Shown: in pieces, positions 9,742 through 23,067 of the stretch
Position numbering within the stretch: the stretch's first letter is position 1
How the letters are laid out: each line of letters opens with the position of its first letter
Assembly: GCA_902488785.1 (NCBI GenBank)
Contig: CABTXJ010000001.1
Span: 1-36,015, forward strand
Length of the DNA: 36,015 bases
Direction of reading: 5' to 3'
From: an uncultured Eubacteriales bacterium
GTDB taxonomy: Bacteria; Bacillota; Clostridia; TANB77; CAG-508
Notes under the pieces: generated by a model
Databases searched by the model: none
What the model saw: only the letters and a program-made list of their open reading frames with translations
Told to the model about the DNA's origin: nothing
Program-made: the position numbers and the translations under genes

Positions 9742-10593
9742 CTATCCTCCTCTTAAAAATTTACCAGATATATTTGTTTGTACTCTCATCCCACCTAATA
9801 AATCATTTGTAATTTGATTAGACTTTATCAATGCATATATAACTCCAATAAATATTAATTTAGAAGATATATTTGATGTTGCCGGTGTTATATATGTTAT
9901 TATCATAAGTATAATAGCTGCTATGTTCTGCATAAATAGTAATGCAACTATTGTTTTAAGCCAAGAATAAAATATATATTCTGTATTTTTTATTGCCTTA
10001 AATATTATCATTATTGGTGAAATTATAAGCATAATAATTACTAACATGTACCTATATGCATATTCAAATAACAATGTTACTAACCCAGAAGATATAAAAA
10101 TTTTTAATATACCATCAAAAGTTGTAAAATCTATACCATTTTCAAAATTATAAATATTAGATTGTAAATTTTTTACATATATGCTAAAAAAAGTTTCTTT
10201 ACTATATGGGTTACTATTTAATTTAAGTATTTCTTTAGTAAACAGTGAATTAATTTTTAAAAATGTTCCTAATATCTCTTCTATATTTGTAGCTACTATA
10301 ATTATTATTATCATTCTTATCAAAAATGTATAAGGATTTTCTTCAGATTTTAATGTAAGATGTGAAAGTAAGAATTTAAAAGAATAATAAATTATTATTC
10401 CAAAAGCAACAGACACCGCAATAGATATTGTTCCATCTACACTTTTGTTTCCCATTATCATTTTGACTGCTCCTTCATTGAAGATATTATCATCAATAAA
10501 TAAAAAATCATCAAGTAGCAAAAAAATATTATTATCAATAGAATTAACTAATTTTGATATTATTCCATTTAATATTCCTATTATATTTTCTAT
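9742..10593 (-). CDS. VirB6/TrbL-like polytopic membrane protein (start proposed at ATA 10593; track start is TTG 10521)
   Basis: At least five hydrophobic helices. The frame stays open upstream of TTG 10521 to the TAA-TAG of the preceding gene. AGGAGG (10604-10599) lies 5 nt before ATA 10593-10591, and there is no SD before TTG 10521. Confidence 0.5.
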   Translation of the reverse strand: MENIIGILNGIISKLVNSIDNNIFLLLDDFLFIDDNIFNEGAVKMIMGNKSVDGTISIAVSVAFGIIIYYSFKFLLSHLTLKSEENPYTFLIRMIIIIIVATNIEEILGTFLKINSLFTKEILKLNSNPYSKETFFSIYVKNLQSNIYNFENGIDFTTFDGILKIFISSGLVTLLFEYAYRYMLVIIMLIISPIMIIFKAIKNTEYIFYSWLKTIVALLFMQNIAAIILMIITYITPATSNISSKLIFIGVIYALIKSNQITNDLLGGMRVQTNISGKFLRGG

Positions 10594-10605
10594 ATTGTCC
10601 TCCTA

Positions 10606-10980
10606 TTATTTAAGCAATGTTTGTATAAACTCTAAAACAAATTTTGTGCTTAGTATAAATGCATATGAATATATAGTTCCTCTAATTAGTTTTTTAGATG
10701 TTCTTACTTTTTCTTCATCTCCAAAACTAAACTTTCTCATTATTAATCCTGTACTTATTGCAACTCCAGCTATTGGTGTAGCTACTAATAATATGTATGC
10801 CTGTATTCTTTCAAAAGCTTTTTGAATCTTTTTTATTAATTTTGGATTAGATTGTGCAAACCCATAATTTTGATTAATAATAATAAAACTTATTATTATT
10901 AATGATATTAATATTTTAATATTTATTTTCTTTAAAATTTTTTTTGACCTTTTTGCATTAATATTTTTTAATCTTCTTAT
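10606..10980 (-). CDS. VirB2/TrbC-like pilin candidate (signal peptide plus two hydrophobic helices), non-canonical ATA start
   Basis: Manual translation gives 124 open codons from the T4CP stop to TAA 10608-10606. AGGAGG 10994-10989 lies 8 nt before ATA 10980-10978. The first ATG/GTG/TTG in frame is codon 81. The ORF is absent from the track. Confidence 0.5.
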   Translation of the reverse strand: MRRLKNINAKRSKKILKKINIKILISLIIISFIIINQNYGFAQSNPKLIKKIQKAFERIQAYILLVATPIAGVAISTGLIMRKFSFGDEEKVRTSKKLIRGTIYSYAFILSTKFVLEFIQTLLK

Positions 10981-20690: not shown

Positions 20691-22477
20691 TTATATTCTC
20701 CTGTTATTATATTTTGTTCAAGTTCATTTGAAATTACTTTCATTAATATGTGATTATTTTCTACAATAAGCATACACTCACCTTTTTTTAATGACTTTAT
20801 ATATATTTTTTCATTGTCAGATATTTGTATATTTTCTGAAAGTATTTCTATATTTTCTTCTTCCAAAGAAAATATTGCTTTTATACTACTATTGCTTAAT
20901 ATACTTCTACCAAGTGTTCCATCATCTAGACTAAATAAATCTCCAATATCTTGAGTTATTGCTACTGCTGCGCCTTGTCTCTTTCTAATTGTTTTAAATA
21001 TTTTATATACAAAACTTGCTGTCTCTTTATTGGAAGTTGCTCCTATTATTCTCCATATTTCATCTATATATATTATTTTGTTTTTATTATTATTTTTAGA
21101 TATTTTATTCCAAAATGCATCAATAAAGATTGACATTCCATATTTATAATTTTCTTCACCTAGATCAGTTATATCTGCAACTAAAAGTTTATTATCTAAA
21201 TTAACATTAGTATGATGGTTAAAATAATTTAAAGAACCACTTATAAATGTTTTTAGTCTTATACTATATTTCTCTAATTTATTATCTTTTATCATTTCAT
21301 TATATATATCTTCTAAAATAGGTAAATAATATTTAGTTTTTTTGTTTTTTTCTTTAGTTTCTTTTTCTTTTTCAATTAATATTTTCTTTGTTTTTTCATC
21401 ATCAAATGTTATTCCATATTTTTTATATGCTAATATTATACAATCTTCTATTTTTGAATAATCACTATCCGTAACACCTTCAAATATTAAATAGAAAAAA
21501 CTTTTTACATCATTTAACTTTGTTCTCAAAATACCTATTTCATTTTCTTCATATTTTAAATAATTTATATCAAGAATATTTATATAATTTTTAGAATTAG
21601 GACCAATTTTTATTATGCTGCCTCCTAGAAAATTACATATTTCCTTATATTCACCTTCAGGATCTATAACATATTGCATACTATCATTCAAATATTCTCT
21701 TAGTATATTAAGTTTTGTAAAATAAGATTTTCCTGATCCTGAAGTTCCAAAAATACACATATTTCCATTTTTATACTTATCTCTATCAAATTTATCAATT
21801 ATAACAAGTGAATTATTTGCTGTTGTTTTTCCATAAAGTATTCCAAAATCATCACTAATAGTATTAAATATAAAAGGGTAAGTAGCAGCTAAACTAGAAG
21901 ATAATATATTCCTTTTAGTTACACATGAAACCATTTTATCATTTGAACTTATTGGCATTACTGACTTATACGCTTCTTCTTGTCTAAAATTTGATTCTCT
22001 AATTTCAAGACCTGCAGAAACACAAATTCCTTTTAGCTTTTGTATGGAGTTTTTTAGTTTTTCTAAGCTATTTTCTATAACAGTTATATATGTGTATATA
22101 TAATATATTTCTTCATTAGTAGTTTGTAATTTTCTTCTAATATATTTTGCATCATTATATGAATATGAAACTAAATCCACATCTTGTCTATTTTCTGCTA
22201 TATCCCTAAGTGTTGCACCTGAATTTCCGATATAATATGTAATTTCTTTTATTGTTTTATATTTATTTAATTTTTCATATTTTATATTCATCTGCATTGA
22301 AATTTCTTCTTGAATAATATTTTTAAAAATAATATCTTCAAAAATATTATTGTAATCTACCACTAAAAATGTTGTAATATACTTTCCTTCTATTTCAATA
22401 TATTTTGGATTACTCAAATCTATATATGTTGGACAAATACTATCAATATTACTTTTAGCACCTTTTAATAATTCCAA
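20687..22477 (-). CDS. virB4: VirB4-family T4SS ATPase (Gram-positive TraE/PrgJ/TcpF-like)
   Basis: It has Walker A IFGTSGSGKSYFTK, Walker B IIYIDEIWRII and IRKRQGAAVAITQDIGDLF. The N-terminal region has the YIEIEGKYITTFLVVDY pattern typical of VirB4. Confidence 0.75.
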   Translation of the reverse strand: MELLKGAKSNIDSICPTYIDLSNPKYIEIEGKYITTFLVVDYNNIFEDIIFKNIIQEEISMQMNIKYEKLNKYKTIKEITYYIGNSGATLRDIAENRQDVDLVSYSYNDAKYIRRKLQTTNEEIYYIYTYITVIENSLEKLKNSIQKLKGICVSAGLEIRESNFRQEEAYKSVMPISSNDKMVSCVTKRNILSSSLAATYPFIFNTISDDFGILYGKTTANNSLVIIDKFDRDKYKNGNMCIFGTSGSGKSYFTKLNILREYLNDSMQYVIDPEGEYKEICNFLGGSIIKIGPNSKNYINILDINYLKYEENEIGILRTKLNDVKSFFYLIFEGVTDSDYSKIEDCIILAYKKYGITFDDEKTKKILIEKEKETKEKNKKTKYYLPILEDIYNEMIKDNKLEKYSIRLKTFISGSLNYFNHHTNVNLDNKLLVADITDLGEENYKYGMSIFIDAFWNKISKNNNKNKIIYIDEIWRIIGATSNKETASFVYKIFKTIRKRQGAAVAITQDIGDLFSLDDGTLGRSILSNSSIKAIFSLEEENIEILSENIQISDNEKIYIKSLKKGECMLIVENNHILMKVISNELEQNIITGEYN

Positions 22478-23067
22478 TTTGATATTTCTTCTCCTTCTTT
22501 TTGTCTAATTGTTGTTTTTAAAAATTCTAATAATTCATTATTTTTTAATTCTTTTACATTATTACCGCATCTTTCTATCATCTCCTTTACAATTTTTATA
22601 TTTTCTTCTAATTTAATTTTTTCTTTAATTAGATTTTCATCATTTTTTATACTCTTATAACTATTTCCTTTGTTTTTATGAACTTTTTCATCAATTTTGG
22701 TATATATTATTATATAGAATGCTTTTGAAGAAGATTTTGATACTTTAATTAAACTTTTTAAATATTTTATATACTCATTTGCAAGTAAATTTGTATTATA
22801 TGTATCATATATATTTTTATCATCATTTTCTTCAATATTTTTAATTATTTTAGATATATTTTGCTTTATACTTCTACAAATTATTTCAAATTTAAAATCA
22901 CATGTTCTAAGCATAGAGCTATATGATTCAATTATAGATGCTTTTTCTAATTTGCTTTTTAATTCATAATTTATTGGAAATATTCTAAGTACTTTAAAAA
23001 CTTTATCTTTTGTACAATAACTTTCATTACCAATTTCAGTTATTTCAATCCATTTTTTTGTATTTAT
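22465..23067 (-). CDS. VirB4 N-terminal-domain-like protein (start proposed at ATA 23067; track start ATG 23094 lies inside the -10 box)
   Basis: WIEITEIGNESYCTKDKVFKVLRIFPINYELKSKLEKASIIESYSSMLRTCDFKFEIICRS resembles the extreme N-terminus of the ~800-aa Gram-positive VirB4 proteins (recalled from Tn916 Orf16-type sequences). GGAGG 23077-23073 lies 5 nt before ATA 23067-23065. Confidence 0.5.
   Translation of the reverse strand: MNTKKWIEITEIGNESYCTKDKVFKVLRIFPINYELKSKLEKASIIESYSSMLRTCDFKFEIICRSIKQNISKIIKNIEENDDKNIYDTYNTNLLANEYIKYLKSLIKVSKSSSKAFYIIIYTKIDEKVHKNKGNSYKSIKNDENLIKEKIKLEENIKIVKEMIERCGNNVKELKNNELLEFLKTTIRQKEGEEISNWNY

Follow-up and report, generated by a model that had tools for sequence, protein, structure and literature searches.

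Inefficient near-cognate start codons limit the expression of infC and pcnB in Escherichia coli, both of which begin with AUU, and initiation factor 3 (IF3) discriminates against starts of this kind. AUA and AUU starts yield 0.1-3% output in E. coli (10.1101/063800). Staphylococcus aureus has infC (AUA), ccpN (AUA), cvfC1 (AUU) and citZ (AUA), which carry extended Shine-Dalgarno sequences (SDs) and reach about 10% of AUG output, with ccpN reaching up to 30% of AUG in rich medium (PMC13009471). For Listeria monocytogenes rsbW, changes from ATG to ATA or ATT gave the translation order ATG > ATA > ATT, and Listeria start codons differ by clade for particular functional classes, stress and virulence genes among them (10.1101/2025.08.26.672274). 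The gonococcal chromosomal type IV secretion system (T4SS) is held at very low protein levels by RNA switches in the 5' untranslated region that occlude the SD and the start codon (PMC8716806). The present report concerns a stretch of 36,015 nucleotides from an uncultured Eubacteriales bacterium (contig CABTXJ010000001.1 of assembly GCA_902488785.1, positions 1 to 36,015, forward strand), hereafter the window, and four genes of a T4SS-like system within it that appear to start at ATA. These four ATAs are probably real initiation codons of functional genes in a chromosomal T4SS-like machine, with near-cognate initiation of low output. The locus shows the sequence features of the attenuation class described above, namely a near-cognate start, a strong SD and conservation among orthologs.

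Initiation sites

The four genes encode a pilin-like protein, a VirB6-like protein, an exported protein and the N-terminal part of a VirB4 protein (VirB4-N). All four sites lie on the minus strand and, as described in the initial annotation, consist of a strong SD (AGGAGG or AAGGAGG), 5-8 nt and an in-frame ATA (Table 1); an upstream in-frame stop is 3-13 codons away. That annotation also held that no better canonical option exists. This applies to the pilin-like, exported and VirB4-N genes but needs qualifying for the VirB6-like gene, where ATG 10461 follows AAGGAG by 8 nt. Initiation at all four ATAs is the most likely interpretation of the sequence.

The open frame of the pilin-like gene runs from 10606 to 10992 (-), and its first in-frame ATG, GTG or TTG is found only at codon 84. 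Two strains of the same species (L085 and L091) carry ATG instead of AGG at codon 11 (window position about 10950), an in-frame start codon without SD, 10 codons after the ATA.

In the VirB6-like gene (open frame 9742-10602, -), an alternative TTG at 10521 has no SD. The 44 codons 5' of ATG 10461 align with the N-termini of orthologs, which were translated from TTG, and show only silent changes against locus L001, the closest relative, in the part that was compared (about 26 codons from the start); these 44 codons are therefore coding. The N-terminus expected from the ATA start is Met-ENIIGILNGIISK. ATG 10461 could yield an N-terminally shortened isoform of the VirB6-like protein.

When the exported protein (open frame 14028-14777, -) is read from the ATA, it begins with a normal signal peptide, MKALRKTIQILLIAMIFLSTINSTSYA. 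The in-frame ATG at 14714 lacks an SD and would remove the charged n-region of that signal peptide. Since the signal peptide is complete only with the ATA start, this start has support at the protein level.

The open frame of VirB4-N extends from 22465 to 23106 (-). Its sole upstream in-frame ATG, at 23094, is located inside the TATAAT of the promoter, has no SD and is absent in the relative L080. Read from the ATA, the protein aligns with orthologs whose start lies a few residues ahead of a conserved Trp that it shares with them. The N-terminus expected from this start is fMet/Met-NTKKWIEITEIGNESYCTK; the peptide MLSQKKEENINTK would be incompatible with it.

Table 1. Features of the T4SS-like blocks and other elements of the window; duplex energies are for pairing of the SD with the 16S tail
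Feature	Position	Strand	Remarks
SD of pilin-like gene, AGGAGG	10989-10994	-	duplex -12.8 kcal/mol; overlaps VirD4 TAG stop; 8 nt before ATA
Pilin-like protein (VirB2/TrbC-like T4SS pilin), 124 aa	10606-10980	-	ATA at 10980-10978
SD of VirB6-like gene, AGGAGG	10599-10604	-	duplex -10.2 kcal/mol; 5 nt before ATA
VirB6/TrbL-like polytopic membrane protein, 283 aa	9742-10593	-	ATA at 10593-10591
SD of exported-protein gene, AAGGAGG	14763-14769	-	duplex -11.1 kcal/mol; 6 nt before ATA
Exported protein, 242 aa, signal peptide	14028-14756	-	ATA at 14756-14754
SD of VirB4-N gene, AAGGAGG	23073-23079	-	duplex -12.2 kcal/mol; 5 nt before ATA; identical in L070-L081
VirB4 N-terminal part, TraC-like stand-alone ORF, 200 aa	22465-23067	-	ATA at 23067-23065; PF26593
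Perfect sigma-70-type promoter TTGACA-17-TATAAT of VirB4-N operon	23093-23121	-	scores 12/12; conserved in L080
Perfect TG-extended promoter TTGACA-16-TATAAT	13021-13048	-	small-ORF/VirD4/pilin/VirB6 operon; conserved in L080
VirB4 ATPase part, 596 aa	20687-22477	-	probable TTG start at 22477, aligned with L080 TTG
orf274, uncharacterised T4SS-operon gene	19866-20690	-	TTG start overlaps VirB4 TGA stop (TTGA)
orf83	19575-19826	-	near-last gene of VirB4 operon; ATG start
orf266	18773-19573	-	end of VirB4 operon; ATG start
VirD4-like coupling protein, 612 aa	10993-12831	-	ATG start without own SD
Small ORF, 50 codons, hydrophobic peptide	12833-12985	-	TTG after AAAGGAG; L080 counterpart at 14556-14708
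Terminator-like hairpin	13118-13146	-	precedes the 13021-13048 promoter
orf102, conserved gene after VirB6-like gene	9411-9719	-	ATG start
Perfect promoter TTGACA-17-TATAAT (third in window)	15038-15066	+	drives G5-domain (YabE-like) gene
tRNA-Arg (CCT)	16063-16139	+	between G5 gene and gyrA
Small SRP RNA	5911-6006	-	upstream of dnaX

The motif AGGAGG-N4-9-ATA occurs eight times in the window, with six distinct SDs, four of which are located at the 5' edge of a long open reading frame (ORF). Shuffled sequences contain 1.65 +/- 1.36 matches, and none of 100 shuffles reached eight. ATA starts are found in 4/12 T4SS-associated genes and 0/22 other genes (Fisher p = 0.011), and non-ATG starts in 7/12 and 1/22, respectively (p = 0.001). 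The housekeeping genes start at ATG as had been claimed, the sole exception being the MGDG synthase gene (TTG). By predicted pairing with the 16S tail, the SDs of the four ATA sites rank 3rd, 5th, 7th and 10th among 33 genes (Mann-Whitney p = 0.01).

Public gene calls for these genes differ from the ATA starts throughout. For the pilin the call is a 44-aa fragment, except in the two strains with the gained ATG, where it has 114 aa. The call for the VirB6-like protein begins at the internal ATG (239 aa) and lacks 44 N-terminal residues, and that for the exported protein (228 aa) lacks the signal-peptide n-region. VirB4-N calls begin within the -10 or the -35 box and are 209 or 214 aa long, a false extension out of the promoter. 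Because gene callers mis-annotate these genes in public metagenome-assembled genomes (MAGs), surveys of T4SSs and pilins in uncultured Firmicutes will under-count or truncate them.

Start-codon survey of related loci

A scan with the VirD4 protein, keeping one genome per species, gave 69 loci, all of them from MAGs of uncultured gut Clostridia, e.g. Clostridium sp. CAG:793. The order VirD4-pilin-VirB6-orf102-dnaD-dnaI is conserved, usually with gyrA upstream. Two T4SS-like operons flank gyrA beside oriC, with dnaD and dnaI coming next, a synteny found in about 60 species-level MAGs (L002-L069). Conservation of this order across species indicates that the T4SS-like module is a vertically inherited chromosomal feature and not a recent mobile element.

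Start codons were tallied with a strict caller in the window and 70 non-redundant loci, comprising 941 ORFs of at least 100 codons. It accepted as starts those ATA, ATT or ATC codons that are preceded by an SD of 6 nt or more with a 4-9 nt spacer and located within 15 codons of an upstream in-frame stop, in ORFs with no canonical start with any SD within the first 40 codons. This caller replaced an earlier, loose SD-aware one, whose 59 ATA and 51 ATT calls were about equal to its own internal-codon null. For VirD4 and the ATPase part of VirB4 (VirB4-C), the N-termini of which are too divergent for anchoring by tblastn, the de novo caller was used.

The strict caller made 50 calls, 49 of them in the 313 T4SS-family ORFs and one in the 628 other ORFs; its internal-codon null predicts 1.8 and 5.5 calls, respectively. 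These counts include the re-assignment to the T4SS of five orf274 homologs just under the BLAST threshold, before which they were 44 and 6 (uncorrected Fisher p about 1e-16). The 49 calls belong to VirD4 (18), orf274 (15), VirB6 (5), VirB4-C (3), the pilin (3), orf266 (2), the exported protein (2) and VirB4-N (1). The proposal that ATA starts occur only in T4SS-associated genes is thus borne out in the window and, with a single exception, in the clade, where the tally over these loci finds non-NTG starts concentrated in T4SS ORFs. Chance placement is far too rare (1.8 expected against 49).

The gene that carries the non-canonical start differs between lineages. In the lineage of the window it is found on the pilin-like, VirB6-like, exported and VirB4-N genes, and in the largest clade on VirD4 and orf274, which begin with ATA or ATT in 15 to 20 species; in many of these VirD4 orthologs the codon follows AAGGAGG, and in orf274 orthologs it stands 8 nt after AGGAGG. 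A second, independent VirB6 clade of eight species has AAGGAGG, 7-8 nt and ATA or ATT, with no canonical option. The non-canonical-start habit belongs to the module and not to the genome, relatives having ATA, ATT or TTG on VirD4, orf274, VirB4-C and VirB6. The 5' ends of VirD4 in L018, L019 and L059 show a different arrangement: AAGGAGGTG is found upstream and is followed by an in-frame TAG, after which no ATG, GTG, TTG, ATA or ATT stands at a usable spacing, and in L059 none occurs for 12 codons.

Ortholog-anchored starts of the VirB6 family are TTG (39), ATG (11), GTG (7), ATA (7) and ATT (2). Those of the housekeeping genes are ATG in 61/61 dnaD and 51/51 gyrA sequences. Among the housekeeping families only dnaI (orthologs in L002-L069) often starts at TTG, in about 26 cases vs 22 with ATG; dnaD lies immediately upstream of it. 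Within the VirB6 family the mean duplex energies of the SDs are -5.0 kcal/mol for ATG, -10.3 for GTG, -11.1 for TTG, -12.9 for ATA and -14.0 for ATT. A weaker start codon thus goes with a stronger SD, a gradient that is only suggestive because the start chooser favours candidates with an SD.

Conservation and selection

The ATA of VirB4-N is identical in 12/12 related loci. The ATAs of the pilin-like and VirB6-like genes are present in 11 loci each and that of the exported-protein gene in nine, in every case all loci that cover the site; the loci come from ENA, NCBI and Logan assemblies. The pilin ATA was seen in the species of the window (L085-L094) and in L001 only.

In the more distant relative L080, VirB4-N has 69% amino-acid identity and dS (the synonymous divergence) is about 0.7-1. 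Promoter hexamers, AAGGAGG, 5-nt spacer and ATA of this gene are all identical there, and the flanks are 81% identical. The exported-protein gene of L080 has ATT at the homologous codon, with no nearby canonical start and no ATG at the equivalent of 14714. TTG is retained in VirB4-C and in the small ORF upstream of VirD4. In a comparison of the sites in relatives, as had been suggested, near-cognate codons persist in L080, and distant orthologs of the pilin and VirB4-N mostly start at ATG, so that the ATA state of these two genes is lineage-specific.

The ratio of nonsynonymous to synonymous divergence (dN/dS) is 0.04 for the VirB6-like and 0.22 for the pilin-like gene (both vs L001), 0.18 (vs L081) and 0.30 (vs L080) for VirB4-N, and 0.21 (vs L070) and 0.61 (vs L080) for the exported-protein gene. 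The four genes with ATA starts are under purifying selection. All reading frames had been described as intact, which is the case in every assembly examined except L086. In L086 (2959-4727), VirD4 is divided into three ORFs, representing either a strain-level inactivation or an assembly error.

Alternative explanations

The pattern argues for low-efficiency translation that has been maintained for a long time, which on the sequence evidence is most likely, and not for decay or sequencing error. An error at the four bases has a negligible probability, since the same ATA appears in all independent assemblies covering each site (5 to 12 per site), across studies and assemblers, and also in the diverged relatives L001, L080 and L081. 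Decay, in which a G-to-A change in the start codon opens the silencing of a relic conjugation system, was the second possibility raised in the initial annotation. The failure to find a relaxase or integrase in the window, the division of VirB4 into two ORFs and the fragmented VirD4 of L086 would fit such a history. Nevertheless, it is extremely unlikely: dN/dS is well below 1, the frames are intact outside L086, the ATAs are fixed in the species, and promoter, SD and ATA are kept together in L080. In addition, the module and its synteny are retained in about 60 species, the divided VirB4 is a conserved two-gene arrangement, and the SDs rank among the strongest of the window. It is also improbable, if somewhat less so, that canonical codons are the true starts and the SD-ATA pairs coincidental, i.e. 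that VirB4-N starts at 23094, the exported protein at 14714, the VirB6-like protein at 10521 or 10461 and the pilin at an ATG at about 10740. Public gene calls choose these codons, and ATG 10461 has a real SD. Against this stand the location of ATG 23094 in a -10 box, the lack of an SD at 23094 and 14714 and the absence of both ATGs in L080, the truncated signal peptide, and the homology of the 44 N-terminal VirB6 codons to ortholog N-termini. The pilin would moreover be reduced to a 44-aa fragment without its first transmembrane segment, and the number of SD-ATA pairs expected by chance is far below that observed.

Several observations weigh against near-cognate, low-output initiation at the four ATAs. 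ATG 10461 is a possible additional or alternative start of the VirB6-like gene, and translation of the exported protein might begin instead at the near-cognate ATT 14759, in frame and only 3 nt from the SD. AT-richness is higher in the T4SS genes than in their neighbours (GC 23.5% vs 27.4%), and drift under AT pressure predicts the same difference in start codons. The prevalence of ATG in distant pilin and VirB4-N orthologs points in the same direction. The baseline of non-T4SS ORFs derives from about 1.3 Mb of origin-proximal T4SS neighbourhoods, to which look-ups of flanking genes added no further sequence of the species, and may under-sample weakly expressed accessory genes, and 79/313 T4SS ORFs, among them many VirD4 and VirB4-C orthologs, fall into the class without SD. 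A rival explanation is that initiation at ATA and ATT is real and weak but without regulatory design, a mutation-selection balance in which strong AT pressure, acting on a lowly expressed module where start-codon efficiency is under weak selection, turned ATG or TTG into ATA or ATT and SDs were kept or strengthened as compensation. This is a possibility to be taken seriously, if the less probable one. The genome is very AT-rich (20-28% GC) and the T4SS genes are its most AT-rich part; ATG becomes ATA by one G-to-A change; the gene with the non-canonical start varies by lineage; and at pilin codon 11 an ATG has arisen in one group of strains. However, the positions hold only near-cognate codons (ATA, ATT, ATC, TTG, GTG), so that the ability to initiate is under selection. 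The pattern is present in one of the 628 other ORFs of the same loci, many of them non-essential, where chance predicts 5.5. The orf274, VirD4 and VirB6 clades have held the non-canonical state over many species, with exchange between ATA and ATT in place of reversion to ATG, and the combination of consensus promoter and weak start looks coordinated. The data are compatible both with an adaptive throttle and with tolerated AT drift, and the suggested tuning of initiation through IF3 or stress is conjectural. The throttling that had been proposed for these genes is a better fit than decay and is supported as a mechanism, a deliberate purpose being no more than a possibility.

Proposed mechanism

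The following steps are modelled on the known cases. The perfect consensus promoters that had been reported were found again, at the VirB4-N and VirD4-pilin-VirB6 operons (Table 1), and the operons are probably well transcribed. The long SD, whose duplex with the 16S tail has an energy of about -10 to -13 kcal/mol, would position the 30S subunit. The initiator fMet-tRNA would then pair with the near-cognate AUA, a pairing disfavoured by IF3 proofreading, and output per mRNA would be a fraction of the AUG yield. Reduced protein output from the ATA starts is expected by analogy with these cases.

VirD4, the pilin-like and the VirB6-like genes (9742-12831, -) lie in one frame and are separated by TAG at 10995-10993 and TAA-TAG at 10608-10603. 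The stop of the preceding gene is 10-15 nt upstream of the ATA in the pilin-like and VirB6-like genes. Given this shared frame, coupling through re-initiation by terminating ribosomes probably contributes at these two sites. The arrangement is compatible with termination-reinitiation, and rare fusions by stop-codon read-through may in principle occur. VirB4-N and the exported-protein gene head their transcripts and therefore need de novo initiation.

Overall, each transcript would give little of the membrane and machine components that it encodes. Any selective benefit may lie in stoichiometry, low toxicity or low expression noise. A low translational burst size lowers expression noise, as known from noise studies in Bacillus subtilis. 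The combination of a consensus promoter and a weak start would give a low burst size, and a membrane machine that depends on stoichiometry could plausibly benefit from the reduced noise. A further-reaching idea, speculative and rather unlikely, is a T4SS start-codon regulon, in which AUA, AUU and UUG starts with extended SDs would let initiation fidelity (the IF3-to-ribosome ratio, the growth state) set the output of the machine. In that case a relaxation of proofreading would activate the machine as a whole, without a transcription factor of its own, and the pairing of consensus promoters with weak starts would keep both noise in expression and imbalance in stoichiometry to a minimum.

Properties of the window and of the T4SS-like genes

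The window is an origin region with a GC content of 20-29% and a sign change of the GC skew near 31 kb. The T4SS-like genes are arranged in two blocks, interspersed with core genes. The order is a murC-like gene, MGDG synthase, minC, recR, ybaB, dnaX (with the SRP RNA), orf240, tadA, dnaI and dnaD; block A with orf102, the VirB6-like and pilin-like genes, VirD4, orf198 and the exported-protein gene; a G5-domain gene (+ strand), tRNA-Arg and gyrA; and block B with orf266, orf83, orf274, the VirB4 ATPase part and VirB4-N. Block B is followed by an M20 peptidase, a GNAT acetyltransferase, gyrB, recF, dnaN and dnaA, and the far side of the origin carries a histidine phosphatase, rpmH, rnpA, yidC and jag. 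The promoter of the G5-domain gene is divergent from the exported-protein gene. In L076 (10212-12919), an element of integrase/RepB/SocA type follows gyrA and replaces the G5 gene region. A search of Rfam near the operons gave no riboswitch or leader, the tRNA and the SRP RNA being the only matches.

Two deviations from the genetic code were considered. Code 4 (TGA = Trp) would create false ORF boundaries; the real ORFs are nearly the same in tables 4 and 11, so that table 11 applies, and the TGA stop that overlaps a TTG start in one gene also counts against code 4. Reassignment of ATA to Met is ruled out because ATA stands at invariant Ile positions in GyrA and GyrB.

The VirB4 ATPase matches NF045971 (CD1110 family) with E = 2.9e-93 and 313.5 bits (equivalog cutoff 325) and Pfam P-loop_TraG with 62 bits (cutoff 25.8). 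VirB4-N covers positions 103-289 of the VirB4_plasma profile. VirD4 matches TrwB_AAD_bind with 31.8 bits (cutoff 20.5) and TraG-D_C with 23.0 bits (cutoff 22); an exact look-up of the VirD4 protein gave no match. The VirB6-like and pilin-like assignments are tentative, with scores below the cutoffs: 18.4 bits for the VirB6-like protein against the VirB6/TrbL profile (cutoff 25.9), with 3/5 orthologs at 18-24 bits, below the cutoff, in the same profile region, and 19.3 bits for the pilin-like protein against the T4SS_pilin profile (cutoff 26.6), with 5/5 orthologs at 19.5-25.7 bits, two of which also match TrbC. No relaxase or integrase domains were found among the scanned ORFs of the window, to which this search was confined. 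A plasmid search returned only distant VirB4 relatives with <30% identity, and nothing relevant was found in the literature on T4SSs in the presumed lineage. Conjugation, DNA uptake and effector delivery are possible functions of the system.

VirB4 is encoded by two genes overlapping by 13 nt, the TraC-like N-part and the ATPase, for which ATC 22483 is an alternative start. A frameshift or pseudogene is ruled out as the cause of this division, since relatives encode a stand-alone PF26593 protein of about 200 aa followed by the ATPase ORF. The small ORF between the perfect promoter and VirD4 is unannotated. The position of its TAA, ending 1 nt ahead of the VirD4 ATG, points to translational coupling, and the ORF, its TTG start and the abutting stop are all kept in L080. 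Its probable role is that of a coupled leader or a small T4SS subunit.

Comparison with known systems

With Gram-positive conjugative T4SSs (plasmids and integrative and conjugative elements of Firmicutes, with VirB4 of the CD1110/PrgJ type) the system shares VirB4 and VirD4 and, tentatively, VirB6/TrbL-like and VirB2/TrbC-like proteins. It differs from them in the divided VirB4, in <30% identity to plasmid VirB4s and in the absence of relaxase or integrase genes seen nearby. Unlike those systems, its genes lie among dnaA, gyrB, gyrA, dnaD and dnaI at the origin, in a synteny conserved across species. For these differences the system is not filed as a conjugative element. It is an uncharacterised, vertically inherited, origin-proximal T4SS-like system of a widespread lineage of gut Clostridia, and deserves attention as such. 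The gonococcal T4SS (PMC8716806) is likewise chromosomal, restrained at translation initiation and composed of translationally coupled genes. There the restraint works by RNA-structure occlusion, whereas here it would come from a weak start behind a strong SD that is exposed. Gonococci are also unrelated to these Clostridia, and their T4SS is of another type.

The S. aureus genes (PMC13009471) resemble those of the window in belonging to a Firmicute and in having near-cognate AUA or AUU, an unusually long SD at normal spacing and conservation among relatives. There, four genes, mostly regulatory or metabolic, are scattered over the genome, with a measured attenuation to about 10-30% of AUG. 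Near-cognate starts normally amount to a handful per genome; in the present case they are found in four genes of one machine within 14 kb (4/12 machine genes) and, over about 60 species, in 16% of its ORFs, against about 0.2% of neighbouring ORFs. The Listeria changes (10.1101/2025.08.26.672274) are mostly recent or strain-level and affect regulators; the feature described here involves several genes of a secretion apparatus and spans species. In E. coli, infC and pcnB are single genes, and for infC a feedback loop was demonstrated; the present case involves several genes. The locus would be a natural test case for the start codon as a module-wide expression setting and for IF3 fidelity as a means of co-regulating a gene set. 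What is new is the module-wide and clade-wide use of non-NTG starts, a concentrated case of the attenuation class known from infC, pcnB, ccpN and cvfC1.

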